NCBI GenBank assembly: GCA_029556615.1
Contig: JAKQDD010000196.1
Location: 11,167 to 75,166, forward strand
Length of the DNA stretch: 64,000 bases
From: Verrucomicrobiota bacterium
GTDB lineage: Bacteria; Verrucomicrobiota; Verrucomicrobiia; Limisphaerales; J093
Reading direction: 5' to 3'
The number at the start of each line of letters is the position of its first letter. The first letter of the stretch is position 1. Below, piece by piece: positions 13,349 to 51,058 of this stretch. Position numbers and translations under genes: made by a program. The notes below the pieces were generated by a model. It did no database searches, was not told where the DNA came from, and saw only the letters and a list, made by a program, of their open reading frames with translations.

Positions 13349-15934
13349 CTAGCGTTGCGCGCTCACCCGGTAGAACCGCTGCGCGCCTGCCGGGTTCGGA
13401 TCATGGAGTGACCGGGGCGACCCGTCACCTTCCACGATTGGCAGAGAGACCCACGCGGCAGCTCCGAGCATATCGCGGTATTCAAGCTGATAGCGGATCC
13501 CCGGCTGGGTCAACACGGTCACCGTGAACCCGCGATCGTCGAGCATTGGACTCTCGATCCGCGGCGGCTCGACCGGTGTGGCGGACTGCGGGACCAACCG
13601 CGCCAGACCGGTGCGGCGCACCCCATCGAACGCAGTGAACTCGCCGCCTACCACAAGGCTGCCGTCGGCGAGTGGGAGGAGGGCGTTGACCCGTCCGTTC
13701 GCCCCCAGACCGGGGTCGAAGCTCGGGTCCGCGTTGCCGTCGAATCGGACGCAACCGAGGCGCTTGCGCGCCAGACCGCCGAGCTCGGTGAAATCGCCGG
13801 CCAACAGGGTCCGGCCACCGGGCATCGACAGCAGGCTGCGCACGCTGTCGTTGGGGCCGGTGTGGGGGTTGAACGTGGCGTCCAGGGTGCCGTCGGAGTT
13901 GATGCGGACGAAATGGGCGCAGGCCTGGCCAGTGATCTCGGTGAAATCGCCGCCGACCAGGTAGCGTCCGTCTCCATCGACTTGGAGGACGAAGACCACG
14001 GCGTCGACTGGCAGCCGCGCGAGGAAATCCGTGTCCAACGTCATCTTCCGCGAGCCACCGGTCGAGACCAGCTTAAGCTTCGCGAGTGCGGGCTGTGCGA
14101 CATCGCCGACCGTGTTGAACCAGCCGCCGACCAGCAACGTCGAGGGGTCCGGACTGGCGAGCGCTGCCACAGCGCCGTCCATGGCGTCGGTCGTGAATTG
14201 GGAGTCCAAAGCCAGGGTGGGGGGGATCGTGGTGCGCCGGACTCCGAAACCGCCCCCGACCAACAGGCGGCCGTCGGCCTGCTGGACCAACGCGGCGACG
14301 GACCAATCGGACGACACGAATTGCAGGATACTGACAGGACCGATAACCCCACCGCGCAAGGAGACCAGACCTTTGGAGGGCAACCGATTCACGGAGGAAA
14401 ACAAGCCACCGAGGACCACCTGGCTCGCCGCGTCGTTCCCCAGGGGGAGGATGGTGTTGACGGTCGAGTTGGGGCCGTCCGCCAGATCGAAGTTGGGATT
14501 CAACGCGCCGTCGGGTCCGAACGAAGCCAACCGCACCCGTTCCTCGTTGTCGACCAAGACAAACTCGCCACCGACAAGGATGTTCGTTGGGCCCAGCGAA
14601 GCAAGGGCCTTGACGCTCCCGCTGCACTTGAGCTCGACGGCAAAGCCGGTGTCGATGCTCCCGTCGGGCAAGAGCCGAACCAGGCCGCTCACGGTCGTCC
14701 CACTCGCCTGGGAAAAAGAGCCGCCCACCAGGATTTCGCCGCGATCGAGCACGGCAAGGGCATGGACCATCGGGATGCCCATGCCACTCAGGTGCGCATC
14801 GAAACCGAGGTCGACGGTCCCGTCGGCGTGGAGGCGGACGAGGCCTGTGAGGGGCTGGCCTGCCGGTTTGTGCACGTCGCCGCCGACGAGGACCTTGCCG
14901 TCACTTTGGACCGCCAGACAGGCCGTGATTCCGTTGAGCGGAACCAACTGCCAGGCAGGATCCAGCGTGCCGTCGGCGTTGAGCCGGGAGACGCCGAAAC
15001 CGCCCACCAGGATCCGGTCATCAGGTTGCAGCGCGATCCCCTGGAGAATGCGTCCCAAGGCGAACGTCTGATCCAGACCGCCGTTCGGGTCGAGCCGGGT
15101 CACCTGTCGCAGGCCGTCTTCGACGCCCAGCATCGTCCCGCTCCGCTCGAGGGCGATGCTCTCGTACCCATGGGAAGCTGGCGCGTTGAATGCAGGGTCC
15201 AGCGTGCCGTCGGAGTTGACGCGAATCACCCCAGAACCGGCTGCCGACACGAATCGCCCGGCGACCAGCAGTTGTCCGCTGGGCAGCAACGCGAGGTCCT
15301 CGACACGCCCCGGTGCGGCAACCTCGAAGGTCGGGTCCACGCTACCGTCCGGATGCAACCGGGCCACCGAGTTCCGACGGCTCGTGCCGACGCGTTCGAA
15401 GTCGCCGCCGACGAGGATTTTGCCATCCGGTTGCAGCACCAGGACGCTCACCCAGCCGTCGAGACCGTCCCCGGGATCGAACGTGTTGTCCACGGCACCG
15501 TCCGTTTCCAGGCGCACGATCCGGCGCCGCAGGGTGTTGTTGACCTGCGTGAATTGGCCGCCGACCACCGTCTTCCCGTCGCCCTGGACGACCAGCGCCG
15601 TGACGATCGGTTGACTCCACAACGCCGGCGCAAAAGCGGGGTCCACGGTCCATCGGGTCGGCGCCGGGGATTCGACGGTCACGTGTGCCGCCAGGCTCGT
15701 GATCGACCCAGCCCTGTTCGACAGGGTCACGGAGTAGCCGCCTCCCTGATCCAACCCGACGCGGTCTACTGGCAGCCCGGCCGGGGTTGCAGCCGGGATT
15801 GCGGTGCCGTCATGGAACGTCAGATCGGTTCTGCCAGGAGAACCGCCCCAGAGTTGGCAGCTCAAGGGTAACACCAGACCCAGCGAGGCGAGCGAAGGAA
15901 TCGACGTCATCATACCCGCAAGAGGTGGCAGCAT
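13349..15934 (-). CDS. large secreted delta-60 repeat protein with an N-terminal Ig-like domain and a C-terminal RFYR module
   Basis: More than 12 tandem units of the type DG(S/T)(L/V)D.(T/A)F...G.V..L..Q.DGKILVGG.F. Signal peptide MMTSIPSLASLGLVL. Ends ...AQRFYRVSAQR. Confidence 0.75.
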   Translation of the reverse strand: MLPPLAGMMTSIPSLASLGLVLPLSCQLWGGSPGRTDLTFHDGTAIPAATPAGLPVDRVGLDQGGGYSVTLSNRAGSITSLAAHVTVESPAPTRWTVDPAFAPALWSQPIVTALVVQGDGKTVVGGQFTQVNNTLRRRIVRLETDGAVDNTFDPGDGLDGWVSVLVLQPDGKILVGGDFERVGTSRRNSVARLHPDGSVDPTFEVAAPGRVEDLALLPSGQLLVAGRFVSAAGSGVIRVNSDGTLDPAFNAPASHGYESIALERSGTMLGVEDGLRQVTRLDPNGGLDQTFALGRILQGIALQPDDRILVGGFGVSRLNADGTLDPAWQLVPLNGITACLAVQSDGKVLVGGDVHKPAGQPLTGLVRLHADGTVDLGFDAHLSGMGIPMVHALAVLDRGEILVGGSFSQASGTTVSGLVRLLPDGSIDTGFAVELKCSGSVKALASLGPTNILVGGEFVLVDNEERVRLASFGPDGALNPNFDLADGPNSTVNTILPLGNDAASQVVLGGLFSSVNRLPSKGLVSLRGGVIGPVSILQFVSSDWSVAALVQQADGRLLVGGGFGVRRTTIPPTLALDSQFTTDAMDGAVAALASPDPSTLLVGGWFNTVGDVAQPALAKLKLVSTGGSRKMTLDTDFLARLPVDAVVFVLQVDGDGRYLVGGDFTEITGQACAHFVRINSDGTLDATFNPHTGPNDSVRSLLSMPGGRTLLAGDFTELGGLARKRLGCVRFDGNADPSFDPGLGANGRVNALLPLADGSLVVGGEFTAFDGVRRTGLARLVPQSATPVEPPRIESPMLDDRGFTVTVLTQPGIRYQLEYRDMLGAAAWVSLPIVEGDGSPRSLHDPNPAGAQRFYRVSAQR

Positions 15935-20314: not shown

Positions 20315-20719
20315 ATGCATTCAACATCTGAAAACGGGGTAGTCCTTGCCAAGACCCTCGAGTTATGCGGGGTCCTGGCTGCCGATCCGGACGTTGTCAC
20401 CCTCCGGCAGCAGGTCGAGGCCTTTCTGGCGGACGATGCCGCCAGGCTCCTCTACCAGACCGTGGCGGAGAAAGGCGACGCCCTGCATCGGAGGCAACAG
20501 CAGGGCCTGGCTTTGGAACCGGCTGACATCGCCGACTTCGAACGGGAACGCGACGCCTTGCTCGGCAACGACGTGGCCCGGGGCTTTCTCGAGGCTCAGC
20601 AGAAGATGCATGAGATTCAGGAGCTCGTGACCCGCTACGTGCGGAAGACGATGGAGCTGGGTCGTGTGCCCGGGCCGGACGACTTCCAGTCCTGCGGCCA
20701 GGGCTGCAGCTGCCATTAG
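20315..20719 (+). CDS. YlbF/YmcA-like (UPF0342) protein with a C-terminal Cys cluster
   Basis: 134-aa helical protein. The call rests on size, the motif FLEAQQKMHEIQELV and the terminal CGQGCSCH, which resemble the YlbF family as I recall it. Confidence 0.5.
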   Translation: MHSTSENGVVLAKTLELCGVLAADPDVVTLRQQVEAFLADDAARLLYQTVAEKGDALHRRQQQGLALEPADIADFERERDALLGNDVARGFLEAQQKMHEIQELVTRYVRKTMELGRVPGPDDFQSCGQGCSCH

Positions 20720-20899
20720 AGTCCTCGCCATGTGGAATCTGTGGTGAACAGGCCAAGGTCTACTCGGTCTGGTTACAGACCTCCCCTCCTTCCGGCGAGG
20801 ACTCTATGGTAGCGAGGCGCGGAACAGGGGGAGGGAAGGGGGCCGCGGGGTCGTGACAGGCCTGGGGACTTGGTTGGGTCTGGGGTGGCGCCTCGCTAG
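20717..20899. repeat. two-hairpin dispersed intergenic element, copy A
   Basis: Aligns to 39411-39587 and 50322-50501. Helix 1 is 20718-20729 / 20794-20805 (12 bp perfect). Helix 2 is 20810-20820 / 20888-20898 (11 bp perfect). Confidence 0.8.
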
Positions 20900-21641: not shown

Positions 21642-22292
21642 TCAGCCGCCGAAGTAGCCGGGGATCGTGTCCGCCTCGAACAAGGCGTCGATGCCGAGGT
21701 TCTCGAGGCGATGGCGCGGGCAGCTTTCGACATGGCCGTCCAGGAAGAGCCCGTTGGATTTGAGCGTGTGCCGGGCGTGCACCTCTTTTTCGCTGGCGGC
21801 GCGGAAGAAGTAGAACTGCTGGGAACCGATGCCTTGGCGGCCGCGGCTGGTGGTATCGGCCACGTGCAGGTACTCGACCGGGTTGGGCAGGCTGTCGATG
21901 TGCAAATACTCCTGGAACGTGCCGCGGGTCGAGTTGGTCGGAGGATCGAGCCGGACGCCGTAGGTGCGGAACCAGTTGGTGAATTTGTGCGGGGGATAGC
22001 TGGGGCAGAGGAACACGCTGACGGTTCGGAGATCGGTGTTGGTGCTGAGGAGGCTGGCCCAGGTGGCGCCGGGGGTGAGCGGCGCATTGATCGGGAGAAG
22101 CCCGCCGTGGTCCTGGGTGTAGAGCAGGGTGGTGACCCCGATCTGTTTGAGGTTGTTCACGCACTGGATCTGCTTGGCCCGCGACTTGGCGTTGCTCAAG
22201 GCCGGCAGCAGGAGGCTCGCGAGGATCGCAATGATGGCGATCACGACCAGCAATTCGATAAGCGTGAAACCGCGCGATCGGTGGTGACTCAT
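21642..22292 (-). CDS. prepilin-type N-terminal cleavage/methylation protein with H-X9-DG motif (DUF1559-like)
   Basis: N-terminus [27 protein letters not shown]-terminal [13 protein letters not shown] gives H-X9-DG. Confidence 0.85.
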
Positions 22293-30177: not shown

Positions 30178-31605
30178 ATGATGAGACCCTGCGAATCGGG
30201 AGTGCGAAGAACCGTGGGCGTGGCGGTTGCCGCCGCTGCTCTGTTGTGGCTCGGGACGGCCCGAGGCGCGGAGGACGGGGCCAAGGCTGCGGAGGCCTAC
30301 TGGCCAGCGTGGCGCGGCCCTTGGGCGACCGGCGTTTCGCCCCAAGCTGATCCCCCCATCTCCTGGAGCGAAACGCAGAACGTCAAATGGAAGGTGACGA
30401 TTCCCGGTCACGGATCGGCGACGCCGATTGTCTGGGCGGACCGGGTGTTGGTGCAGACCGCGATTCCGCGGGATGGCGGGTCGGCAGCAGCCACGTCGGC
30501 GGTCTCCTCGGAGGTCACGGGCGATCCCGGCGGACTGCCGCCGCGCGAACGCCGGCCGGGGGGCGGCGGCGGCATGCGGTCACAGACGCCGACCGAGCCT
30601 CACCGGTTTGTTCTGCTATGTCTGGACCGGAACACGGGGAAGACACTCTGGGAGCGGTGCCTGCGGGAGGAGATCCCCCACGAAGGACACCACCAGGCCG
30701 ATGGCACCTTCGCGTCCGCGTCGCCCATCACCGATGGCCAATGGGTGATCGCTTTCTTCGGTTCCCGCGGTTTGTACGGCCTGGATCTTGAAGGCAACGT
30801 CAAGTGGTCGAAGGACCTGGGACGCCTGCAGATCAAGAACGCGTTCGGTGAGGGGGCGTCCGCCGCCCTGGCCGGCAACACGGTGGTCGTGAACTGGGAC
30901 CACGAAGGCGAGGATTTCATCGCCGCGTTCGATCGGGAAACAGGCAAGGAGCTGTGGCGCCAACCGCGGGAGGAAGACACCTCGTGGTCGACACCCCTGG
31001 TGGTCACCGGCGCGGGTGCGCCGCAGGTCGTGACGTCGGCGCCGCGCAGGATCCGCAGCTACGACCTGGCCACAGGCAAGCTCCGCTGGGAGTGCGGCGG
31101 GATGACGCAGAATGTGGTCCCCACGCCGGTGGCGGGATCGGGATTGGTGTACCTGTTGAGCGGCTTTCGAGGGAGCGCCCTCCTGGCGATTCGGACCGAT
31201 GCATCGGGGGACGTGACCGGCACCGACGCCGTGGTCTGGCGGTTGGGCAAGAACACGCCGTATGTGCCGTCCCCGTTGCTGGTCGATGACAAGCTCTGCT
31301 TCTTTGCCGGCAACACGGCCGTCTTCTCCTGTCTCGACGCGAAGGACGGCAAGCCGCTGATCGACGCCCAGCGGCTCGAGGGGCTCTCGGGAGTCTATGC
31401 CTCGCCGGTGGCGGCGGCAGGACGAGTCTACCTGACCGGCCGCAACGGCGTCGTCATGGTTGTCCGGCTTGGCTCTCCGCTCGAGATCCTGGCGACCAAC
31501 CGTCTCGAGGAGCGGATTGATGCTTCTCCGGCGCTTGCGGGGAAGGAACTGTTCCTCCGCGGTCGAAGCTCGCTCTACTGCCTGGCGAGGCGCGGCTCGG
31601 ACTAA
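30178..31605 (+). CDS. PQQ-like beta-propeller repeat protein (BamB-like fold), secreted
   Basis: Signal peptide. Repeated W-containing blades (WPAWRGP, KWKVTIPG, TLWERCL, VKWSKDL, ELWRQP, LRWECGG, VVWRL). Confidence 0.75.
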   Translation: MMRPCESGVRRTVGVAVAAAALLWLGTARGAEDGAKAAEAYWPAWRGPWATGVSPQADPPISWSETQNVKWKVTIPGHGSATPIVWADRVLVQTAIPRDGGSAAATSAVSSEVTGDPGGLPPRERRPGGGGGMRSQTPTEPHRFVLLCLDRNTGKTLWERCLREEIPHEGHHQADGTFASASPITDGQWVIAFFGSRGLYGLDLEGNVKWSKDLGRLQIKNAFGEGASAALAGNTVVVNWDHEGEDFIAAFDRETGKELWRQPREEDTSWSTPLVVTGAGAPQVVTSAPRRIRSYDLATGKLRWECGGMTQNVVPTPVAGSGLVYLLSGFRGSALLAIRTDASGDVTGTDAVVWRLGKNTPYVPSPLLVDDKLCFFAGNTAVFSCLDAKDGKPLIDAQRLEGLSGVYASPVAAAGRVYLTGRNGVVMVVRLGSPLEILATNRLEERIDASPALAGKELFLRGRSSLYCLARRGSD

Positions 31606-31682
31606 CGGAACCTCCGGGCTGCAGCGGCGGGCGCTGACCGCGGCGGGTGAAAGGGGGTGCCCTTGCGGACCGTTCTCGTGCC

Positions 31683-31742
31683 GCCCTCGCCGCGGGCGGC
31701 TACAGAATGAGGACTCGACAGAGTCTGAGGCGCGCCTCGCTA
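31683..31742. repeat. internally deleted copy (D) of the two-hairpin element
   Basis: Retains GCCCTCGCC...GGCTACAGA...GAGGACTC and then GTCTGAGGCGCGCCTCGCTA. The last 19 nt match copy B exactly. Confidence 0.55.
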
Positions 31743-36103: not shown

Positions 36104-36202
36104 GGAAACTTGCTGGATTGCGTCAGAACCCGACTGCCGCGCTGCGCAGTCGCAGCGCGCCGAGCAGTACCAGGCTGCCAATCCTCTGCTTCACCGGCGC
36201 GG

Positions 36203-36231
36203 ACACTACGCGCCAGGCACCCGCGGGTCAA
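36203..36231 (-). promoter_or_regulatory. candidate sigma70-type promoter for the leuA leader
   Basis: The minus strand reads TTGACC-N17-TAGTGT. Confidence 0.4.
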
Positions 36232-36354
36232 CTTCTTTTCCCGGCCCGGCGGATTCCGAGCACCCGGCGCTTGCAATCCTCGGGCCTGCGCCTCATGCTC
36301 ATTCCGGTCTGGATTTGCAGTCCTCCGCGCCCCGGGGCGCGGGTCCGTTGTCAC

Positions 36355-38172
36355 ATGAGCACATCACCCGAGTCGGAGCTCGATCTCGATCTCCAGCTAC
36401 TGCCGGCGTGGGCGCGCCAGTCGTCCACGGTCAACCGTTACGCCAAATACGAAGGGGAAACCGGCGATGACCGCCGGGGCCGTCGGGGCGGGCCCTTTGG
36501 CCCGCGGGGCGATCGTCCGCCCCGGCGCGATCGTCCCCCGGGTTCGGGCGAAGGCCGTCCGCAAGGTGCCGACCGCGGCCGCCCGGGTGGACCCCCAGGC
36601 CGATCCGGACGGCCTCCGCGCTATGGAGCCCGCGGGACGGACCGTCGGGATGAACCCGCGGCGCCGCCGGTCCCGCTGCCGGACGTCAATGTCAATCTCG
36701 TCCCGGAGGACAAGGGGGTCGAATCGCTGGCGCGCCAGATCAAACTGACCGGGCGCTCCTATGCCTTGTTTGACATCGCCCAGCTGATCCTCCGGCGCCC
36801 TGACCGTTTCGACGTCGATCTTTCGGTGGTGAAGAACGCCGAGGGCAAGGTGGTGCAACCGCTGTTTGTCTGTTCCCTGGACGAGTCGGTGTGGCTCAGC
36901 GAGGACGAGTTGGTCGGTCACGTGTTGCGCCAGCACTTTGACACCTTCTACCAGACGGAGAAGGTCGCAACCGAGCCTCCCAAGGGCACGTACACGCTCG
37001 TGGCCCAGTGCGGCGTGACCGGGGTGATTCTCGGCCCTCCGAATCTCCACGATTACCAGGAAAAGCTCCGACGGCTTCATGCCGAGCGCGTCCCGCGGAT
37101 GCCCTTCGAGGTCTACCGGAACCGGGTGCAAATGGTGCGCGACGAGGCTGTGGTCAAGCGTTGGGTCGAGGAGCAGAGCTGGAAGCTGCAGTTCATCGCA
37201 CTAAACGTCCCCGAGGCGCTGCGGTTCGACCGCCGGGACGATGTCGAGCAGCACTTCCGGCAAACCCACTTGGCCAACCTGATCCGTACGGTCGAGTCCC
37301 ACAGGCTGCGCGCCGGAACGAATCGCGTTCCGATGACCCCCGCCCTGAATACGCTCATCCGCCGTGCGCTCGAAGACCAAAGGCGTTTCCCCCTCCGGCT
37401 GGCGACGACTCTCAGCCAGCAGTTCGCCGGTCACGGCCTCCAGTTCTTCAAGGTCAACCGGACGGTCACCCACGTCTGTGTGGCCCGCCCCCACTACCTC
37501 GACATGGAAACCACGGTGGTGTCGGAAGGCGTCCGGCGGATTGTGCAATTCGTCAACGAGCACCCCGGCTGCACACGCCGCAAGCTCCTCGATGCGCTCG
37601 CCCCTAGTCCGCCCGTGCCGCCCGCGCCGCCCGCGCCGCCCCCGCCAGCCCCTGCCCCGGCCACACCTGCAGTCGAGGCTGTCCCCGGAGCTGAGGCTTC
37701 CGGCGAAGCCGCGCCGGCATCCGTCCCTGCCGCAGGCTCGGGGCCATCGTCGCCCACACCCGAGCAGACTGCCGTGATCTCTGATCTTCATTGGCTGATC
37801 CATCAAGGGCACGTGCTCGAGTTCTCGGACGGCCACCTCGAGACCGCCAAGGCGCCACGGCCGAAGCCCGAGCCGAAGCCCGAACCGAAACCGGCGGCGC
37901 CGACGGGCCCCTCCGCGCCTGCCGCGGCGGCCGTGGAACCCGTGGTGGCTCCTGCCGTTCGCGAAGCCTCGGAGTTCACGACGCCTCCCGCGGCCACGGA
38001 AGTCCTTCTCGCGGAAGGCACCGTCGTGCCATCGGCGCCCGACCCCACGCCCGGAACGCGGACAGCTGACACGCCTCCGTCGCCGGATCCGGTGGAGAAC
38101 ATCCCTGCGCCGCCGACAGAGGCACCCGTGCCGGATCCGGCTCCCGCGCCGCCCACGCCGCCGTCTCGTTAG
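36355..38172 (+). CDS. conserved hypothetical protein with an Arg/Gly-rich N-terminal region and a Pro-rich C-terminal region
   Basis: Start at MSTSPESELDLDLQLLPAW (ATG 36355). Residues ~35-95 are RGG/RP-rich. A globular core follows (LFVCSLDESVWLSEDELVGHVLRQHFDTFYQTEK...). Near the end is DLHWLIHQGHVLEF. No family recognised. Confidence 0.6.
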   Translation: MSTSPESELDLDLQLLPAWARQSSTVNRYAKYEGETGDDRRGRRGGPFGPRGDRPPRRDRPPGSGEGRPQGADRGRPGGPPGRSGRPPRYGARGTDRRDEPAAPPVPLPDVNVNLVPEDKGVESLARQIKLTGRSYALFDIAQLILRRPDRFDVDLSVVKNAEGKVVQPLFVCSLDESVWLSEDELVGHVLRQHFDTFYQTEKVATEPPKGTYTLVAQCGVTGVILGPPNLHDYQEKLRRLHAERVPRMPFEVYRNRVQMVRDEAVVKRWVEEQSWKLQFIALNVPEALRFDRRDDVEQHFRQTHLANLIRTVESHRLRAGTNRVPMTPALNTLIRRALEDQRRFPLRLATTLSQQFAGHGLQFFKVNRTVTHVCVARPHYLDMETTVVSEGVRRIVQFVNEHPGCTRRKLLDALAPSPPVPPAPPAPPPPAPAPATPAVEAVPGAEASGEAAPASVPAAGSGPSSPTPEQTAVISDLHWLIHQGHVLEFSDGHLETAKAPRPKPEPKPEPKPAAPTGPSAPAAAAVEPVVAPAVREASEFTTPPAATEVLLAEGTVVPSAPDPTPGTRTADTPPSPDPVENIPAPPTEAPVPDPAPAPPTPPSR

Positions 38173-38192
38173 AACGTCTGCCGAGGCCGAGC

Positions 38193-38513
38193 TCAGGGGG
38201 CGGGAGGAGGCGGTCCGCCGGCTGCCAGACGGCGCAGAAGGTCGAACGAGAAAAGTCCGGAGTTGTGGCCGTCGCCCCAGACGGGTTGGATGGCGTAGCC
38301 GCCCACTCGATGGAGACCCACAAGTTGGAACGAGGCGGGGCTCAGCAGAGTGTCGGGCCCCTTATCGCGATGGCCCATGACGTCGACCTCGCCCCGGCAT
38401 CCGGCGCAGGGGCAAGCCCGACGCAGGCTCTCGAGGGGAATGAACGACTCCGAGCCGTCATCCCATTTGATGGCCAATTCCGAGCCAATCGCCTGCACAT
38501 CCAACGGTCGCAT
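38193..38513 (-). CDS. DUF971-family protein
   Basis: LAIKWDDGSESFIPLESLRRACPCAGC and AIQPVWGDGHNSGLFSFDLL match the DUF971 pattern. Confidence 0.75.
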   Translation of the reverse strand: MRPLDVQAIGSELAIKWDDGSESFIPLESLRRACPCAGCRGEVDVMGHRDKGPDTLLSPASFQLVGLHRVGGYAIQPVWGDGHNSGLFSFDLLRRLAAGGPPPPAP

Positions 38514-38888
38514 GAGGCGACTTTAGAGAACCTGCGGAGGACAATCAACGCAGCGCGGCTTGGCCGCAACCCAAGCCCAGAGTCTCTTCGTTTGCGTCCG
38601 GCTCCGACGGTGACGTCGGTCGCCGCGCTGCGCTGGCGCTATCGCGCACGACATGGGCGTCCACTCCCGGGTTTCTTTGTCCCGAATTCCGTTGTCCTTC
38701 CGCCGCCCGATCTGCACTTCGCCCGGAATCGGTGAGGCGCTTCCCTACGCTGTTGACCCCTGTGACCAATGGGAATCGCATCTCGACTTGCGACCTTGAA
38801 CGAATCACCATTGGCCATGGATCAGTCCCGATGGCTTCTGCCCAGCGGCAATCGGTTTCCCGGAGTGATCTCCTTGCTGCAGACCGGG

Positions 38889-39413
38889 ATGAAGAAGTCG
38901 ATCGCGTCCTGGGGGTTCCCGCTCCTGCTGGGCCTCGCCGTTCAGCTTGGGCCACGTGAATGTCATGGAGACGCCCTCTTCCCGGGCTACCAGGGCAGGC
39001 AGGAAGCGAGTCTGGTCACGCACGGCGGCCAGACCCTCCGATTTGGCAACACCGTCCAGGCGGAACAGTACCTGACAAGGGTGGTGCGGTCAGTGCCGGA
39101 GGGCCCGGAAGGTGTCACCCTCGACCGACCGAGTTTCACGATTGTTGACGTTTACAGCAACGGAGCGCAGCGGTACGCCGACGTCAAGGCTCTGGTTCCC
39201 GTGAAGGTGTCTGAGTCGGTTGCTGCCGGTTCCTATCCCTACTCGATCCGTCTCTACGATCGCAACAACGCTCTCCTGCTGACGGTCCAAGGGACCCTCA
39301 AGGTCAAGAGCAGCGTCGCGGCTGCCAATCGGTACAACAAGTTGATGGCGATTGGCGGGGGCGCGTTGCTGATCGTCCTTGTGATCGCGACAATCACAAG
39401 TCGCTCCGATTAG
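38889..39413 (+). CDS. hypothetical secreted protein with a C-terminal TM anchor
   Basis: Start at MKKSIASWGFPLLLGLAV (ATG 38889). C-terminal helix AIGGGALLIVLVIATI. Its stop TAG is the first triplet of repeat copy B. Confidence 0.45.
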   Translation: MKKSIASWGFPLLLGLAVQLGPRECHGDALFPGYQGRQEASLVTHGGQTLRFGNTVQAEQYLTRVVRSVPEGPEGVTLDRPSFTIVDVYSNGAQRYADVKALVPVKVSESVAAGSYPYSIRLYDRNNALLLTVQGTLKVKSSVAAANRYNKLMAIGGGALLIVLVIATITSRSD

Positions 39414-39587
39414 GTCCTCGACCTGTGGAACGTGTGGTCAACAGGTCGAGTTTGGTCCCTGCCGTTCCAAGCCTTCCCACCTTCCGTCGAGGACTCTACA
39501 TTAGCGAGGTGCGGAACAGAGGGTCCCGAAAGGCAGGAAAGCTCCATGGGATCGCGAACTTGGCTGGGTCTGAGGCGCGCCTCGCTC
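39411..39587. repeat. two-hairpin dispersed intergenic element, copy B
   Basis: Helix 1 is 39414-39422 / 39486-39494. Helix 2 is 39503-39512 / 39577-39586 (10 bp including one U-G pair). It differs from copy C at roughly 17 of ~150 aligned positions (hand alignment). Confidence 0.8.
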
Positions 39588-43241: not shown

Positions 43242-43451
43242 TCACGGCGCGCGGATGGCGATCACTGCGATGACGACCAGCAATTCGATCAAGGTGAAGG
43301 CCTGGTTGGCGCAAGCCCGGGCCCGAGGTGCCCGCCGCCTGGTCTGTGCGACCGCGCCGTTGCTCGTCCCCCCGGTGGAAGGCTCACGCGGGCCGCAGCG
43401 CCCGGGCGCGGAAACGCCCGGGCGCACGCTGGTCAGGTCTCCTGCGGTCAT
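43242..43451 (-). pseudogene. remnant of a prepilin-type gene (only the N-terminal methylation/TM segment remains)
   Basis: The ATG overlaps the stop of the upstream giant gene (ATGA). The ORF ends ...[22 protein letters not shown]-stop. No pilin-like body follows in any frame before the next gene. Confidence 0.4.
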
Positions 43452-46400
43452 TGCGCCACGAGTCGGGCGAAGACGACGTTGCCCGGGATCTGGGCGACCG
43501 GCACGCTGTAGGGGCTGACGGTGTTGGCGCCGGGCGCTTCCTGCCACTGGGCAATCGGCGATGCGATGTCGCTCGAGATGAGCAGCCGGGCATTGCCGGT
43601 CCAGGTCAGAACCAGGTTTCCGTTGACCACCTGGATCGTGTCGAACGTCGGCGGCTCGATCGGGGCGGGCTCGACGGTGAGGGCGGCGGCGCTGCCCACC
43701 ACGCCCAGGCCATCCGTCACGAGCACGGTGTACGTGCCGGCCGCCTGGAGTGGCACCTTGGTCAAGGTCAGCGTCTGGGTCGTCGCGCCGCTGATCGAGG
43801 CTCCGTCGGCGAGTTGCACGCCATCGAGCAGCCAGCGGTAAGCGAGGCCGTCGCCCGTGGCGCTGGTCGTGAACGTCACGGTGTCGCCTTCCTTCGCGGT
43901 CTGATCCGCCAGCTCCTGAGTCATCGCGGGGGGTGTGCGAGTCCCCGGCACGACCCGGACATTGTCCACGAGCAGGGTGCGGTCCTGGTCCGGATCCGCG
44001 ACGACGTGCGCAATCCGGAGCGCCACCGTATCGGCGAATGGGGTGAAGGGGACGAAGGCCTGGTAGAGGGGCAGCGTGTGGAGAAAACCCGGCCAGGGCG
44101 AGGAGCTGTTGACCGGCTCGAAGGTCCGGGTGTCGATGAGCGCTTCATCGAGGTAGAGCTCGTAGGTTGTTTCGGGGAACGCGCCGCTGGTGTTGTGTTC
44201 CCGACCGTCGCGTCCATTGTAGTCGAACACCAAGGTGTACGGCTGCTCCGCCTGCAGGCCGCCGACGATCTGTTCGAGGCTTCCGCCGCCCTGGAGGAAG
44301 ATCACGTTGTCCTGGTCCGAGTTGATCCCGTTGTCGAAGAACGGCTCAACGAAGAAGGTCTTCGGACTGTACCCGTTGGGACCGTACCCGTTGCGCGCCC
44401 CGCCCCATCCGGCAATCCGGGACGGCTGGATGTACCCGGGCCAGGCGGCGCCCATCGCGGTGCCTTCGAAGCTCGAGTTCATCACGGTGATCTCGCCCGG
44501 CAGCCGGGGAACGATCGAGACGGCATCGAGGAACAACGTCGCGTCGCCGGACGTGACGACGACCTTGAACTCGAGCAGGCCGGTGGCGTCGCCGGGGGTG
44601 AATCGGACTTCCTGGAAGAAGTACTCGCTCAGCCCCGCGTCGGACGCCGGAGCGACGCCCTGCAAATCGAGGATCTGCTGCCCCGCGAACGAGACCTGCA
44701 GCGCCATTTCGTACGGGTAGCCATACGTGCGGCCGTTGTAGAAGAACTGGAGGCCGTACTCCTGCCCCGGTTTCAGCCCCTTGATCGCCTGGGAGACGGT
44801 GCCGCTGCCCTGCACTCGCAGCACTTTGGCGCGGTCGGGGATTGGCGCATCCGCCGCCGGTCCGAAAGGATTGGCGGCATTGGCGATGCCGATCCCTCCG
44901 GCGGTCGTCCAGCCGGCAACGGGTGTCGAACCGACGCCGCTGTCCTTATCCAACTCGAAGCTCGGGTTGAGCACGAAGCTCGAATTGGCAACGAACAGCG
45001 CCGGGACGTCGGTGGGAGGCAACAGCCCTGCGGTATCGATCACTTGGACGCTCGCGTTCCCCACGCCGACTCCTGCGAACGAATACGGCTGGGACGTGGC
45101 GCCCGGGAGACCCCACTTCTTGCCCAGGTACCGCTCGGCCGCCTCCCGTTCGGCGGGCGACAAGGCGCGGTCGTAGACCAGGAGTTCCGCCACTTCGCCT
45201 GCCAGACCGCCGTGGCCCTGTTTGGTGGCGCCAAGGCGCCAGGGACCGTTCTGGCCCCCTTCGGTTCCGATGGGCACGGTCCGGTCGACGCTTCCGTTGA
45301 CGAAGAGGGAGAGTGTCGCCGCGGAGACGTCCTGGAGCACGGTGGCCAACGCCCAAGTGCCGGGCGTGTAGGTGCCGCTCGCCACCAGCGAAGCCTGGGC
45401 CGAAACCGATTGCAGCCTGTGGTTGGCCGAGGCGTCAGAATCGATGAAGAGCACCGTCCGGCCGCGATTGGCCGACGTGTCGAGGTCCAAGGGTTGAAGC
45501 AGGCTATCGCGCCCTTCGAGCGCGCCCGCACTCACGCCCGTGTCGTCAGAGCGGAAGACCAGGAGCGCGGTGTAGGAAGCTCCGGCCTTGGTTTGCACGG
45601 TGGCCTTGCTGTCGAGGAACTGCACGCCGTTGACCGTGCCGTCGGCATCCAGATCATCGAAGCGGACCGTCGGCAGGTTGTTGAGTCCGTTGGCGACGAA
45701 CGTGGGCTGGTTCGCCTCGGTGGCCTGGCTGGCGTCGTTCGCGTTGCCGGACGAATCGGCCCAGCTGGCCAATCGGGCGCCGTTGGCCATGCCTGTGATG
45801 GCGTCGGCCTTCAACCAGAGCTTCGCGCCCGCCGGAGGTGTGGTGGGGGCGGAGGCATTGCCGAACGTGAGGCTGAGCACGCCGTTGGCGTCGGCTCCCA
45901 CCAGTGCCGCCACATTGGTTCGCTCGCTGCGCAACCGGATCACTGCATCGCCGCTGGCCAACCGTTCGGCGGGAATGGACACCGTGCCGCCGGCTTGCTC
46001 GCCGACCCTGAGCAGCGCCGTCAGCGGCGTGATCGCGATTGGCGGGAGCTTCGAGCCGGTCCGGCCGATCACCTTGATGTCGTCGAGCAGCACTGCCGAG
46101 CCGGGGAGCGTGTTGGCGAAGCTGATGACGCTGGTCTCCTCCGCCGCCTTGAAAGTGACCGTGGCCTTGCGGTAGGCGGCCGTCCCGCCCACGGGCATGA
46201 CGTCCTGCTCCCAGATCACCGCTCCGCCCACGACGAGCTGCAGATGGGGGGTGGTCCCCGCCCGCGCGTTGTAGGCGAACTCGACGCGGTAGTCGTCATT
46301 CACCACCAGGGGGTCCAGGGTTTGCGCGACCGAACCGACACCCTCGATGAACAGCGCGACGGCCTGGTCGGGGATCTCCCCGTTGTCCGCATAACCGCCC

Positions 46401-47122
46401 GTCCCGTCGTCCACGCCCACGATGCCGGTCTTGGCCCAACCGCTCACCGCCGGCCAGTCGGTTCCGACCGCGGGAGCCCCTTCATAGACCGTGCCACTGG
46501 CCTCGAAGCTGGGGTTCTGGACGACGAAGTTGTCCTCGTCGCGCTGGACGATCGTCACCGCATCGAGCAGCGCGGTGGAATCGCCGTACGCGGTGACGGC
46601 GAACGTCAGCGTGCCGTAGTCCACCTCCGGAGTGAACACGACATTGCGGAAGTAGTACGGGGCGCCGCCGGTGACCATCCTCGGGTTCACGATTCTGTCC
46701 AGCTCGACATCCGCGAAGCGGACCGTCAGGTCATAGTCCGCGGAGTTCCGGCGGTCGTATCGGAACTGGAGCCAATAGCGCGCGCCGGGCGTGAGTCCCG
46801 CAATATCCTGGGAGATCGTGCCGGCCCCTTGTTTGAAGGCGACGCGTCGGCCGTCGGGCACGGGCGTGCCGCCGTTGTGAAACGGGCCGCTGGCTGTGTT
46901 CACGCCGTAGGCGGGCGACGAGACCCAGTCCGTGATGTCAGCCACCCCCTGGAGGTAGTGGGGCGATTCCGGATTGTAGTTGTCTTCGAAGCTTGGGTTC
47001 CGGACGAAGGCCGTTCCCGCCTGGATCGAGGTGGCGCAGCCGAGACCAGCGATGAGGGTGAGGAACGCGAGGGCGGAATGGCGATGAGCACTCATGACGT
47101 TCATGATGGTTGGATACTGCAT
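43448..47122 (-). CDS. giant secreted protein: 4 x NPSFE-type (DUF642-like) jelly-roll modules + LamG + Ig-like + C-terminal module
   Basis: Four modules start at NPSFE / NPSFE / NPSFE / NSSFE and end at LLDAVTIV / LLDDIKVIG / FLDAVSIVP / LVDNVRVVPG. LamG segment LWLKADAI...ANQPTF...LPTVRFD...AELLVYDRALS. Ig-like domain with YRWLLDGVQL. Start is ambiguous (47122, 47104 or 47095). Confidence 0.75.
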   Translation of the reverse strand: MQYPTIMNVMSAHRHSALAFLTLIAGLGCATSIQAGTAFVRNPSFEDNYNPESPHYLQGVADITDWVSSPAYGVNTASGPFHNGGTPVPDGRRVAFKQGAGTISQDIAGLTPGARYWLQFRYDRRNSADYDLTVRFADVELDRIVNPRMVTGGAPYYFRNVVFTPEVDYGTLTFAVTAYGDSTALLDAVTIVQRDEDNFVVQNPSFEASGTVYEGAPAVGTDWPAVSGWAKTGIVGVDDGTGGYADNGEIPDQAVALFIEGVGSVAQTLDPLVVNDDYRVEFAYNARAGTTPHLQLVVGGAVIWEQDVMPVGGTAAYRKATVTFKAAEETSVISFANTLPGSAVLLDDIKVIGRTGSKLPPIAITPLTALLRVGEQAGGTVSIPAERLASGDAVIRLRSERTNVAALVGADANGVLSLTFGNASAPTTPPAGAKLWLKADAITGMANGARLASWADSSGNANDASQATEANQPTFVANGLNNLPTVRFDDLDADGTVNGVQFLDSKATVQTKAGASYTALLVFRSDDTGVSAGALEGRDSLLQPLDLDTSANRGRTVLFIDSDASANHRLQSVSAQASLVASGTYTPGTWALATVLQDVSAATLSLFVNGSVDRTVPIGTEGGQNGPWRLGATKQGHGGLAGEVAELLVYDRALSPAEREAAERYLGKKWGLPGATSQPYSFAGVGVGNASVQVIDTAGLLPPTDVPALFVANSSFVLNPSFELDKDSGVGSTPVAGWTTAGGIGIANAANPFGPAADAPIPDRAKVLRVQGSGTVSQAIKGLKPGQEYGLQFFYNGRTYGYPYEMALQVSFAGQQILDLQGVAPASDAGLSEYFFQEVRFTPGDATGLLEFKVVVTSGDATLFLDAVSIVPRLPGEITVMNSSFEGTAMGAAWPGYIQPSRIAGWGGARNGYGPNGYSPKTFFVEPFFDNGINSDQDNVIFLQGGGSLEQIVGGLQAEQPYTLVFDYNGRDGREHNTSGAFPETTYELYLDEALIDTRTFEPVNSSSPWPGFLHTLPLYQAFVPFTPFADTVALRIAHVVADPDQDRTLLVDNVRVVPGTRTPPAMTQELADQTAKEGDTVTFTTSATGDGLAYRWLLDGVQLADGASISGATTQTLTLTKVPLQAAGTYTVLVTDGLGVVGSAAALTVEPAPIEPPTFDTIQVVNGNLVLTWTGNARLLISSDIASPIAQWQEAPGANTVSPYSVPVAQIPGNVVFARLVAQ

Positions 47123-47146
47123 AAGCAATGGACCTTCTGGGCTTGG

Positions 47147-47217
47147 CTAGAGTCCTGGAATTGTAGGAGATGAGGTCAGCAGGTCAAGTTTCGTCCTGCC
47201 GTTTCGAACCTATCCCC
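47147..47217. repeat. 5' half (domain 1 only) of the two-hairpin element, copy E
   Basis: CTAGAGTCCTGGAATTGTAGGAGATGAGGTCAGCAGGTCAAGTTTCGTCCTGCCGTTTCGAACCTATCCCC aligns with positions 1-70 of copies A to C. Similarity stops abruptly at about 47218. Confidence 0.55.
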
Positions 47218-48567: not shown

Positions 48568-48816
48568 GTGAGAACGACAGTGACGATCGACGCCGATACC
48601 GAGGCGTTGCTGAAGGAGGAAGTCGCCCGGACGGGACAGTCTTTCAAGGTGGTGTTGAACCAGGCGGTGAAGCGGGCTTTGAGACGCCCTTCGACCCGGG
48701 CTCGAGTCGAGCCGCTGTTTTCGGCTCCGTTTCCAGTCGAACTGGCGCGCCAGAGCTTCAATCGACTCGCTGCGGAGTGGGAGGATGAGGATACGGTGAA
48801 GGAACTTTCTTCATGA
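48568..48816 (+). CDS. vapB: VapB-type antitoxin
   Basis: MRTTVTIDADTEALLKEEVARTGQSFKVVLNQAVKRAL is a typical antitoxin N-terminus. It has a 4-nt ATGA overlap with the PIN gene. Confidence 0.7.
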   Translation: MRTTVTIDADTEALLKEEVARTGQSFKVVLNQAVKRALRRPSTRARVEPLFSAPFPVELARQSFNRLAAEWEDEDTVKELSS

Positions 48817-49244
48817 TTCTGCCCGATTTGAACCTCCTGCTGTACGCCTACAATCCCCACACGCTGCAGCATGAGGCTGCCCGGCGCTGGTGGGAAGGGG
48901 CGATGAACGGCGACGAACTCATCGGACTGCCTCTCGAAGTCGCCTTCGGTTTCATCCGCGTGGCCACGAATCCACGGCTGGGGCCGGCGAGGGTCGCCTT
49001 GGCGGACGCGCGCCGGGTGGTGGAGAGTTGGCTGGATCTTCCGCAGGCGCGGGTTCTGAGCGCTGGCGCTCGGCACTTTACCCGGGTGATGGACTTGATG
49101 ACGGCGGCCATGGCGGCGGGACCGGTCCTGTCCGATGCCATACTGGCCGTGTACGCCATCGAGCATCGCGCGACGCTATTCACCAACGATGGAGACTTCG
49201 GGCGGTTTCCGGGATTGAAGTGGGAGAATCCGCTCCTGCGATGA
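48813..49244 (+). CDS. vapC: PIN-domain ribonuclease toxin VapC
   Basis: Acidic residues are in PIN positions: LPDLNLL near the N-terminus, LPLEVAFGF, LSDAILAVYA, and LFTNDGDFGRF near the C-terminus. Confidence 0.85.
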   Translation: MILPDLNLLLYAYNPHTLQHEAARRWWEGAMNGDELIGLPLEVAFGFIRVATNPRLGPARVALADARRVVESWLDLPQARVLSAGARHFTRVMDLMTAAMAAGPVLSDAILAVYAIEHRATLFTNDGDFGRFPGLKWENPLLR

Positions 49245-49621: not shown

Positions 49622-50347
49622 TTGACCACCGTGCACTTCGCCGTCATTCAATTCCCCGCGTCGAACTGCGATCAGGATTGCCGGCACGCCATCCGGGTGC
49701 TGGGGCACGAGGCCGAGTTTGTGTGGCACAAGGAAACCGGGCTGGGGGCAGTGGATGCCGTGATCATCCCGGGCGGGTTCAGTTACGGGGACTATTTGCG
49801 GTGCGGGGCGATCGCGCGCTTCAGTCCGGTGATGCAGGCGGTGCAGGAGTTTGCCGCCGGGGGCGGGTTGGTGATCGGGATCTGCAACGGATTCCAGATT
49901 CTCTGTGAGGCGGGGCTTCTGCCCGGAGCGCTGGTGCGGAACCGGGACCTGCAATTTCACTGCGAACCGGTGCATCTCCGCGTTGCGACGCACGATTCTC
50001 CGTTCACGTGCAAGGTGCCGGCGGGCCGGATCCTGCGGATCCCGATCGCGCATGGGGAGGGCTGCTACTACGCCGACGCCGCGGTGCTGTCGGAGCTCGA
50101 ACGTCGCCGGCAGATCCTCTGGCAGTACTGCGACGCGGACGGCAACCTGACCGAGTCGGCGAATCCGAACGGATCGCTGCTGAACATCGCGGGGATCTGC
50201 AACGAACAGCGGAATGTGGCGGGCCTGATGCCCCACCCGGACCGCGCCAGCGAGGAGATCCTCGGCAGCGCGGACGGGCGTTTGATCTTCGAGAGCATGA
50301 TCGAGGCGCTTCTCGTCTCCCGAGAGTCCTCGACTTCTGAAACATAG
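49622..50347 (+). CDS. purQ: phosphoribosylformylglycinamidine synthase I (glutaminase subunit PurQ)
   Basis: [14 protein letters not shown], catalytic [15 protein letters not shown]. The start is TTG 49622 or GTG 49631. The last ~8 codons lie inside repeat copy C. Confidence 0.9.
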
Positions 50348-50501
50348 GGTCAACAGGTCAAGTTTGGTCCCTGCTGTTCCGGGCCTTCCCTCCTTCCGTC
50401 GAGGACTCTCCATTAGCGAGGCGTGGAAGAGAGGGTCCGGAAAGGCAGGAAGGCTTCATGGGATCGCGGACTTCGTTAGGTCTGAGGCGGCGCCTCGCTA
50501 G
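50322..50501. repeat. two-hairpin dispersed intergenic element, copy C
   Basis: Helix 1 is 50322-50334 / 50398-50410 (13 bp perfect). Helix 2 is 50414-50423 / 50491-50500 (10 bp perfect). It spans the whole purQ/frr intergenic gap. Confidence 0.85.
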
Positions 50502-51058
50502 ACCGTCATGATCTCCTTCTCCTTGTGGGCGACGTGCTGGTCGATTTTGGCGATGTACTCGTCGTGGCACTTCTGGACTTCCTTCTCGGCGTGCTTCTCT
50601 TCGTCCTCGGTGACGCCCCCGGCCTTGGCGGTTTTCTTGAGCTGCTCGATGGCCTCCCGGCGCACGTGACGGACAGCGACGCGGCTGTCCTCGGCCATCT
50701 TGCGGACGATCTTGACGAATTCCTGCCTGCGTTCCGTGCTGAGCTCGGGGAACACGATCCGGAGGACCTTCTTGTCGATGGCCGGGTTCAGTCCCAGGTT
50801 CGCCTTTTGGATGGCCTTCTCGATGGGATGGAGGGTGGTGACGTCCCACGGTTGGATCACCAGGACGCGGGGTTCGGGCGCGGTGATGCCCGCGAGCTCC
50901 CGGAGGCGCATCTGGGAGCCGTAGGCGTCCACCATGAGGTTTTCGACCAGGGTGGCGGAGGCTTTGCCGGTGCGGACGCCGCCGAACTCGTGGAGGAGCA
51001 CCTGCTCGGTCTTTTGCATCTTCTCACGGGCTTCGGCCAGGATTTGCGGGATGGTCAT
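50498..51058 (-). CDS. frr: ribosome recycling factor
   Basis: 186 aa. The sequence TGKASATLVENLMVDAYGSQMRLRELAGI...VIQPWD...KAIQKANLGLNP is typical of RRF. Confidence 0.95.
   Translation of the reverse strand: MTIPQILAEAREKMQKTEQVLLHEFGGVRTGKASATLVENLMVDAYGSQMRLRELAGITAPEPRVLVIQPWDVTTLHPIEKAIQKANLGLNPAIDKKVLRIVFPELSTERRQEFVKIVRKMAEDSRVAVRHVRREAIEQLKKTAKAGGVTEDEEKHAEKEVQKCHDEYIAKIDQHVAHKEKEIMTV

Follow-up and report, generated by a model that had tools for sequence, protein, structure and literature searches.

Two genes of opposite orientation, purQ and frr, meet on a Verrucomicrobiota contig (JAKQDD010000196.1), and the gap between their stop codons is filled exactly by a sequence of about 180 nt that is predicted to fold into two tandem hairpins. 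The locus raises the question of what this sequence is and how it came to fit between two stop codons. We analyzed it within a stretch of 64,000 nt (the window) and in related metagenome contigs. An earlier note, made from the letters of the window, had described a dispersed repeat and had not recognized in it a known RNA family, repetitive extragenic palindrome (REP), bacterial interspersed mosaic element (BIME), or miniature inverted-repeat transposable element (MITE). Placing it outside the REPs, BIMEs, and MITEs is not supported, as the anatomy of the element matches tagged palindromic REP dimers and REP doublets forming hairpins (REPINs), including those of Verrucomicrobia (PMC3733652, PMC3337134). 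The element is probably selfish DNA, a repeat of the REP/REPIN/BIME kind that cannot move autonomously, and not a new RNA gene.

Results

Copies in the window

The element consists of two palindromic modules, D1 and D2. The full copies in the window are called A, B, and C, and copy C is the one between purQ and frr.

50322..50410, plus strand: module D1 of copy C, palindromic, ~89 nt, with 13-bp arms GAGAGTCCTCGAC / GTCGAGGACTCTC
50411..50413, plus strand: spacer CAT, 3 nt, conserved, joining D1 to D2
50414..50501, plus strand: module D2 of copy C, with arms TAGCGAGGCG / CGCCTCGCTA and then the terminal G that completes CTAG
50479..50501, plus strand: REP-like unit R of copy C, GGTCTGAGGC-GGC-GCCTCGCTAG, a small GAGGC/GCCTC hairpin plus the CTAG tag
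50370..50449, no strand: central imperfect palindrome, in which the D1 pyrimidine tract (50370-50393) is complementary to the D2 purine tract (50425-50449)
20717..20899, plus strand: copy A, full D1-D2, more diverged
39411..39587, plus strand: copy B, full D1-D2, with its 3' CTAG mutated to CTCG
47147..47217, plus strand: truncated copy, CTAG and the 5' ~70 nt of D1
31583..31742, plus strand: complete D2-type unit without D1, 160 nt, with inverted R units TGGCGAGGCGCGGCTCGGACT ... AGTCTGAGGCGCGCCTCGCTA and a ~115-nt spacer between them
49622..50347, plus strand: purQ, whose last 8 codons and TAG stop are element sequence
50498..51058, minus strand: frr, ribosome recycling factor (RRF), full length (186 aa), whose TAG stop is the element's terminal CTA(G), with CTA at 50498-50500

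The four helix arms that the earlier note proposed for copy C lie at exactly 50322-50334, 50398-50410, 50414-50423, and 50491-50500, and RNA and DNA folding both give side-by-side hairpins closed by these arms. The D1 arm GAGAGTCCTCGAC differs from the family consensus TAGAGTCCTCGAC in its 5' T, which is changed to G, and the D2 interior belongs to subfamily "a". The proposal that the element reaches into the end of purQ and supplies the frr stop codon also holds. Homology of PurQ to PDB 3D54 stops at residue 228 of 241, so the purQ tail is element-coded.

Three motif searches of the window gave 3, 2, and 3 matches, compared to 0.00-0.03 expected from shuffles. The three full and two partial copies first reported are all real matches, far above chance, but the supposed 60-nt partial copy at 31683-31742 is really the 3' part of the complete 160-nt inverted-repeat unit at 31583-31742. 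The left arm of that unit, TGGCGAGGCGCGGCTCGGACT, overlaps the last 7 codons of open reading frame (ORF) 30178-31605, and its DNA fold has a z-score of -3.7. Over 164 nt, copies B and C share 87% identity; the 21 differences are close to the first estimate of 17 in about 150. The stop codon of ORF 20315-20719 is the first triplet of copy A (TAG, 20717-20719), and the truncated copy precedes the start of ORF 43448-47128 (minus strand) by 19 nt. All five window copies are on the plus strand as reported, but this is chance only, because about 100 loci divide 51:48 relative to GC skew and are random relative to genes.

Abundance and hosts

The comparison set consisted of 1.2 Mb of related metagenome contigs (L-numbered loci), which were searched with nhmmer, and matches were collapsed by flanking sequence. 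The 217 matches represent 161 distinct loci (121 full and 40 partial copies). A single sample of 549 kb has 82 full and 26 partial copies, and an 18-mer from the element matched at least 117 JGI metagenome contig stretches. These counts, including at least 82 full copies in one sample, bear out the high genomic copy number that had been expected from the window. Truncated, tandem, and in-gene copies all occur among the related loci, as do sites that are polymorphic between filled and empty.

The window contig has a GC content of about 67%. The identical locus is present in several JGI and ENA wastewater/digester assemblies and in NCBI metagenome-assembled genome (MAG) GCA_035356785.1. Among named RRF homologues, those of Verrucomicrobiota MAGs come closest (82% identity or less). 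The element family in its present form is absent from GTDB species representatives, where a scan with an 18-mer gave six chance matches (Nocardia, Spirochaetia, and others), none with the element. Plasmid and phage collections had no match to the element.

Modules and ends

The element has exact ends, with the boundaries between C and TAG on the 5' side and between CTA and G on the 3' side, and it is modular. The consensus of about 120 copies reads TAGAGTCCTCGAC-(62 nt)-GTCGAGGACTCTA-CAT-TAGCGAGGCGCG-(63 nt)-CGCGCCTCGCTA, preceded by C and followed by G. D1 is about 90 nt with 13-bp arms (TAGAGTCCTCGAC/GTCGAGGACTCTA), and D2 is about 87 nt with 11-12-bp arms. Pairwise identity among copies averages 77% (range 60-95%), with 90-99% conservation in arm columns. 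At least three subfamilies can be told apart by the D2 interior, and the arms are common to all of them. Conserved arms with variable interiors are the usual pattern for repeats whose ends matter. The D1 interior GGTCAACAGGTCAAGTTTGGTCCCTGCCGTT is also strongly conserved, and it could act in its own right, either by binding a protein or as RNA.

Both outer ends are CTAG, with frequencies of C 82%, T 69%, A 83%, and G 92% at the 5' end and C 93%, T 81%, A 83%, and G 86% at the 3' end. TAG is preceded by C in 82% of element 5' ends, compared to 7% outside elements. An NTAG tag is present on all four arms (69-92% per base): CTAG on the left arm of D1 and the right arm of D2, TTAG on the left arm of D2, and GTAG only on the right arm of D1, where it is read on the bottom strand (GTAGAGTCCTCGAC).

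The last 22 nt of D2 form unit R, GGTCTGAGGC-NNN-GCCTCGCTA(G), in which the GAGGC/GCCTC hairpin is next to the tag. The 1.2 Mb set has 201 R matches, 31 of them outside D1-D2 matches. Inverted R pairs build D2-type units in the window (31583-31742) and in relatives L130, L133, and L135. In the composite, the left R of D2 is cut to 12 nt; 11-12 bp are retained and are 95.9% paired. D1 solos with clean CTAG ends exist, and apparent D2 solos keep the ACAT spacer and are thus 5' truncations. The central palindrome was considered as a conserved third helix and was ruled out, as it is only 58-80% paired across copies and varies with subfamily. It crosses both closing helices, so it would be an alternative fold or a pseudoknot.

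A REP-associated transposase gene between copies

GTAG-tagged REPs are found in the Planctomycetes-Verrucomicrobia-Chlamydiae (PVC) superphylum, and Opitutus terrae is "highly enriched" in them (Di Nocera et al., PMC3733652). The REP families of this member of the Verrucomicrobia are GTAG-17 to -20, and systems of REPs and REP-associated tyrosine transposases (RAYTs) have been described repeatedly (PMC3733652, PMC3116915, PMC3337134, PMC3479197). Head-to-head REP dimers have spacers of 20-100 bp and fold into one hairpin, and some are heterodimers; some REPs are intragenic, and RAYT genes are flanked by REPs or other repeats (PMC3733652). Pseudomonas genomes have composites by the hundreds in which a degenerate REP is fused with a stem-loop unrelated to it (PMC3733652). 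REPINs are inverted REP pairs with variable spacers and are served by single-copy RAYTs (Bertels and Rainey, PMC3337134).

A six-frame motif scan of the 1.2 Mb set found a sole HUH/Tyr protein, encoded at L105:1508-2077 on the minus strand, with both motifs intact. Its score against NCBIfam NF047646 "REP-associated tyrosine transposase" is 83.7 bits, over the cut-off of 80, and that against Pfam Y1_Tnp is 19.1 bits, under the cut-off of 23. It matches PDB 4ER8 (E. coli TnpA-REP) at E = 2e-8. MAG GCA_035356785.1 contains both this gene (contig DAOQSW010000024) and the window locus (contig ...026). The earlier note had suggested a search for a RAYT or IS200-like Y1 transposase flanked by copies, and the L105 gene is such a case, as it is situated between D2 units. 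On the gene's strand, a D2 unit ends 80 nt before the start codon and a D1-D2 composite begins 143 nt after the stop codon. Each of these flanks also contains a segment of another repeat, X, and the upstream X-D2 and downstream X-D1-D2 are direct repeats that are about 96% identical. They differ by a precise 90-nt D1 (GCGT joined directly to CATT versus GCGT-CTAGAG...CTCTA-CATT). In Verrucomicrobiota, the RAYT protein family has thousands of members at about 70% identity or above and a constant length of 189 aa. This size, conservation, and constancy fit a RAYT that is domesticated and inherited vertically.

Repeat X (...GAAGGACTGCG...CCAAAAGCTGGCGCC...) has 16 matches at nine loci. It flanks the RAYT gene at L105:1365-1500 and 2246-2377 and is also found in L050, L083, L098, L054, L006, L025, L101, L007, and L096; the window has no copy. 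The RAYT orthologues in L140 and L141 have GTAG-type inverted repeats on their flanks, and X is related to these. Near the orthologue in L140, another Verrucomicrobiota contig (L140:8693-12564), are two phage-integrase-family genes and an IS91-type Y2 transposase gene.

Insertion sites

Paralogous repeats or near-allelic contigs provided five filled/empty comparisons. The empty site has one CNNG (CCAG, CGAG, CCTG, or CAAG) in four of these, and the filled site is CTAG-element-CTAG. As read from these comparisons, the net gain per insertion is the element core plus one CTAG. The flanks are asymmetric, with (C)GC preferred before the 5' TAG and G/A preferred downstream, and the upstream (C)GC repeats the bases that precede the 3' TAG within the element. 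The preferred location is right after (CG)CTAG, a mimic of the element's own 3' end, so TAG stop codons are among the targets, as are the ends of copies already in place. About 15% of copies are directly 3' of another unit's ...GCCTCGCTAG / CGCTAG end, and such head-to-tail arrays share one CTAG. These patterns argue for a target choice that is asymmetric, strand-specific, and guided by likeness to the element's own 3' end, without true target duplication. The style of insertion appears to be IS200/IS605-like.

The commonest variant of the terminal CTAG is CCAG, which arises independently at either end. A change of CTAG to CCAG is in the direction expected from very-short-patch (Vsr/Dcm-type) repair, and these end changes look like later mutations.

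Position relative to genes

Gene contexts were taken from a crude gene caller based on GC content at third codon positions (GC3). By this caller, 93 of the 98 classifiable copies are intergenic and five are intragenic; the contexts are 30 convergent, 48 tandem, and 20 divergent. The distances between elements and genes have a conspicuous spike: where the 3' end of an upstream gene faces the 5' end of the element, 18 of 51 junctions overlap by exactly 3-4 nt. The same exact overlap occurs at 22 of 57 junctions where the 3' end of a convergent gene faces the 3' end of the element. At these 40 of 108 junctions (about 37%), the TAG stop codon of the gene is the terminal TAG of the element. Three of the eight TAG-stop genes in the window are involved with elements, including frr (copy C) and ORF 20315-20719 (copy A).

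CTAG occurs 11 times in the 64-kb window, where base composition predicts 193 occurrences and a Markov model 42, and three of the 11 are element ends. TTAA and TATA are likewise depleted in the window. Because CTAG is nearly absent from the genome, C-TAG stop codons are among the few tolerated targets, which explains the exact fit of copy C between purQ and frr.

Eight frr loci, with RRF identities of 79-99%, show the same relationship to stop codons. A D2-like unit starts on the stop codon in all four loci with a TAG stop (the window, L130, L133, and L135) and in none of the four with a TGA stop. No orthologous empty purQ/frr site was found in relatives, in which synteny downstream of frr is not conserved. 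L133, which is from a different species, has two D1-D2 composites with compensatory changes in the D1 arms (TAGAATCCTTGACC / GGTCAAGGATTCTA), and for both composites the TAG stop codon of the upstream gene is the first triplet of the element. The composite at L133:1343-1521 fills a whole intergenic gap; an ACT-domain gene stops on its first TAG, and the pyrH ATG follows it by 3 nt. Any ribosome-binding site of pyrH would therefore lie within the R unit. The presence of composites with the same behavior in L133 indicates that the family is older than the species of the window.

Discussion

Proposed mobility as a REP-like DNA repeat

REP-like mobility by way of the RAYT would work as follows. 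D2 is a REPIN-like inverted pair of R, and D1 is another tagged palindrome, with its right arm GTAGAGTCCTCGAC on the bottom strand, that would have become fused 3 nt upstream of D2. The fused 180-nt unit would then have been amplified to about 100 or more copies. RAYT, a HUH tyrosine transposase, would bind the R hairpin in single-stranded DNA, cut 3' of CTAG, and move or copy the unit to another CTAG-like site in the IS200/IS605 manner. We consider it plausible, at slightly under an even chance, that the RAYT found here mobilizes D1-D2.

Several observations weigh against this explanation. Three of the four arms have CTAG or TTAG as their tag in place of GTAG, and the 180-nt unit, with 11-13-bp stems and loops of about 60 nt, far exceeds canonical REPs of 20-40 nt. 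IS608/ISDra2-type elements have a replication-strand bias; this bias was sought as a test of a single-strand mechanism, and none was seen (51:48). The D2 units that flank the RAYT gene are direct repeats, unlike the inverted REPs of classical REPtrons. Two loci with RAYT orthologues (72-76% identity), from two other genomes, are flanked by other GTAG-containing inverted repeats, GGACTGCGGTAGTCCTCTACCGC / GCGCCAGAGGACTGGCGCAGTCCAAAAGC and also GGACTGCGGTAGTCCTCTACCGC / GCGCCAGAGGACTGGCGCAGTCC, which are homologous to the X segments and not to D1-D2; comparison of D1-D2 with these flanking repeats gave only chance-level matches of 8-19 nt. The cognate substrate of the RAYT may therefore be X, and the orthologue flanks suggest that X is probably its ancestral partner. 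D1-D2 may be a second client of the RAYT, a replacement for X, or a mere neighbor through its abundance. In the near-allelic comparison of L073/L048 with L007, the empty site reads CCAG, as do the two ends of the filled copy, which fits duplication equally well. One extra CTAG per insertion is likewise compatible with either a 2-4-bp duplication or an element-borne end. Both the mobility of the element and the action of RAYT on it are read from sequence comparison.

A related possibility, which we regard as unlikely, is that a REPIN lineage is changing its architecture, with a RAYT of the GTAG-type X lineage captured by or switched to the 180-nt heterodimer D1-CAT-D2. If so, the heterodimer would pick its targets by mimicry, the flanking CGCTAG being the same as the CGCTAG at the end of the element. 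It would also provide sequence-level evidence that REPINs integrate in an IS200/IS605-like way that is guide-directed, free of duplication, and aimed at stop codons.

Target duplication by a DDE transposase as an alternative

The element could instead be a classical MITE, moved in trans by a DDE transposase that targets CTAG, such as an IS630/Tc1-like or IS5-like one, and the terminal CTAGs would then be target duplications (TA, TAG, or CTAG). IS630 and IS5/IS481 groups prefer CTAG-like targets (ISfinder descriptions), which favors such an origin, as do the CTAG at both ends and the near-allelic pair with CCAG in all three positions. Each module by itself carries perfect inverted-repeat arms of 11-13 bp, as a MITE would, but the dominant mobile unit is the composite. 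Its outer ends (CTAGAGTCCTCGAC... and ...GCGCCTCGCTAG) share only CTAG(A/C)G when one is reverse-complemented, so it has no usable terminal inverted repeat (TIR). In the 1.2 Mb and the window, wherever two element ends are separated by 130 nt to 4 kb they enclose ordinary genes such as cydAB, with no transposase or parent insertion sequence (IS) between them. A palindromic DDE target would have symmetric flanks, in contrast to the CGC upstream and G/A downstream of this element. Duplicated ends should match, but the 5' and 3' variants are uncorrelated (CCAG/CTAG in eight copies, CTAG/CCAG in six, and CCAG/CCAG in three).

Two single cases are also relevant. An in-gene insertion at L023:10314-10492 can be compared to the intact gene at L102:3490-3611; the contigs are 90% identical, and the insert of 183 nt is in frame but carries stop codons that shorten the ORF by about 50 codons. 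The empty site is GAG, and the filled site has CAG at the 5' end and TAG at the 3' end. A duplicated in-frame TAG would be impossible in a working gene, so this case argues against target duplication. The D1 indel beside the RAYT gene has an empty version (GCGT joined to CATT) without TA or CTAG. Taken with these cases, a MITE origin is improbable.

Possible RNA function

The earlier note implied an unrecognized structured RNA. A functional RNA kept by the host could be a 3' untranslated region (3'-UTR) stabilizer, a terminator, or a family of small RNA genes, and we find any of these quite improbable. The closing helices are 94.5% and 95.9% paired in 122 copies, and a few compensatory changes occur, as in the L133 arms. 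Covariation is marginal given how little the helices vary, and its score (0.085) is barely over that of shuffles (0.074). Inverted repeats are also expected for REP or TIR recognition at the DNA level. The alifold model of the plus strand has about four G-U-type pairs for each A-C-type pair, which would favor RNA, but mostly from fixed consensus positions. Minimum free energy z-scores of single copies are unremarkable (-0.5 to -2.3). Rfam had no match in the whole window at gathering thresholds, and permissive E-values around the element gave miRNA-hairpin noise (best 20 bits compared to a threshold of 79). No intrinsic U-tract terminator or sigma-70 promoter pattern was found in the element.

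REP hairpins are known to affect mRNA stability (PMC3733652), and many copies are just past stop codons. However, orientation relative to flanking genes is random, and the copies between divergent genes (20 of 98) and within genes (five) do not fit an RNA of this kind. Truncated and tandem copies and gene-disrupting insertions fit selfish DNA. Hairpins of the element in 3'-UTRs may well influence transcripts; an RNA-level effect, such as stabilizing or ending transcripts at their 3' ends, would be a by-product, and none of the results points to it as the reason for the family's existence.

The least probable origin, which we consider very unlikely, is a palindrome-associated transposable element (PATE)-type IS200/IS605 derivative with fused left and right ends (and possibly a TnpB omega-RNA scaffold) moved by a conventional multi-copy TnpA; it would agree with the lack of a TIR, the lack of duplication beyond one CTAG per insertion, insertion 3' of a tetranucleotide resembling the element's own 3' end, and hairpins at both ends, but the left and right hairpins are unrelated in sequence where IS200/IS605 ends carry similar ones, the 1.2 Mb has no IS200-type TnpA or TnpB and its only Y1 enzyme scores as a RAYT equivalog, Rfam gave no HEARO/omega-RNA match, and there is no replication-strand bias.

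Significance and other observations

The REP-like family described here has more than 120 diverged copies, subfamilies, solo modules, and filled/empty pairs, in a phylum with little-studied REP/RAYT systems. Its asymmetric targets and head-to-tail arrays are testable clues to how RAYT repeats are placed, which is an open question for REPINs (PMC3337134). For annotation, the elements create false C-terminal extensions (the purQ tail is RESSTSET), donate stop codons, and can truncate genes. A short-read Logan contig from SRR4236648 (L005, 1798 nt) breaks off downstream of frr, roughly 24 nt inside the element, which is consistent with the element breaking assemblies.

Another repeat in the related contigs, Y, is a palindromic hairpin of about 100 nt (GGGCGGGCTTCCCAATCCGCGAAA...CGCGCGGATTGGGG), and its predicted fold energy is -83 kcal/mol. 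Its 17 matches are at 14 loci (L011:3074-3187, L085:9409-9514, L062:1365-1476, L084:9271-9386, and about 10 more), and a copy at L085:5375-5555 holds a D1-D2 insertion in its loop.

The window itself has further features. GC-rich repeats with a period of 9 nt (CGCCCGYGC...) are at 37601-37654 and 38123-38158, in a region (36181-39411) where the GC3 caller called no gene. Inside the large minus-strand ORF 13349-15934, at 13868-15595, are several direct repeats (39-48 nt each, at spacings of 150-930 nt) that look like a repeated protein domain. Two genes share a prepilin-type N-terminal motif typical of the PVC superphylum, with 80% DNA identity (22218-22268 and 43248-43298), and Pfam N_methyl was recorded on small genes neighboring them. 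Directly upstream of purS/purQ is a VapBC-type pair (48568-49244), in which an antitoxin-like ORF (48568-48816) overlaps a PIN-domain gene (48813-49244).

Comparison with known repeat systems

REP and REPIN systems with RAYTs (E. coli, Pseudomonas, Stenotrophomonas, and O. terrae) are the closest in kind. As in those systems, the element is a high-copy palindrome with a small hairpin beside an NTAG tag, and head-to-head inverted pairs with spacers of 20-100 nt form one long hairpin in which arms are conserved and spacers vary. Copies are likewise mostly extragenic, with a few inside genes, and their termini give TAG stop codons. The repeats flank a RAYT-equivalog gene, and related units occupy the same site in related species. 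Unlike in REP/REPIN systems, the tag is CTAG or TTAG on three of four arms, the left REP of D2 is truncated, and what has been amplified is a heterodimer of 180 nt, made of two unrelated palindromes (stems of 11-13 bp) plus a third, central one. The units beside the RAYT gene are direct repeats, and RAYT orthologues elsewhere have a different flanking repeat.

BIMEs of E. coli are also mosaics of palindromic modules that occur singly, recombined, or in tandem, and they too are intergenic past the 3' ends of genes. Rhizobium-specific intergenic mosaic elements (RIMEs) have the same mosaic and intergenic likeness. Unlike in BIMEs and RIMEs, the modules of the element are unrelated in sequence, and a fixed D1-CAT-D2 arrangement dominates and acts as one unit.

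Bacterial MITEs such as Correia/NEMIS, ERIC/IRU, and RUP resemble the element in their length of 100-200 nt, hairpin potential, location near or overlapping gene ends, and TA-containing termini. They have true outer TIRs and a TA duplication, whereas the element has no outer TIR and the evidence leans against duplication. Rickettsia palindromic elements (RPEs) are also palindromic, can be located in ORFs, and are partly translated, as is the purQ tail. RPEs are typically in frame and tolerated within proteins; the element carries stop codons, and the internal insertion examined truncates its ORF.

The "double inverted repeat" of P. putida and P. fluorescens consists of degenerate GTAG-1 REPs and an unrelated stem-loop, in hundreds of copies that also flank RAYT genes (PMC3733652). 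In outline it is, like the element, an amplified composite of a REP-type unit and an unrelated stem-loop beside a tyrosine transposase gene; it has other sequences and is from another phylum. The element family probably belongs to the REP/REPIN/BIME kind already described for Verrucomicrobia.

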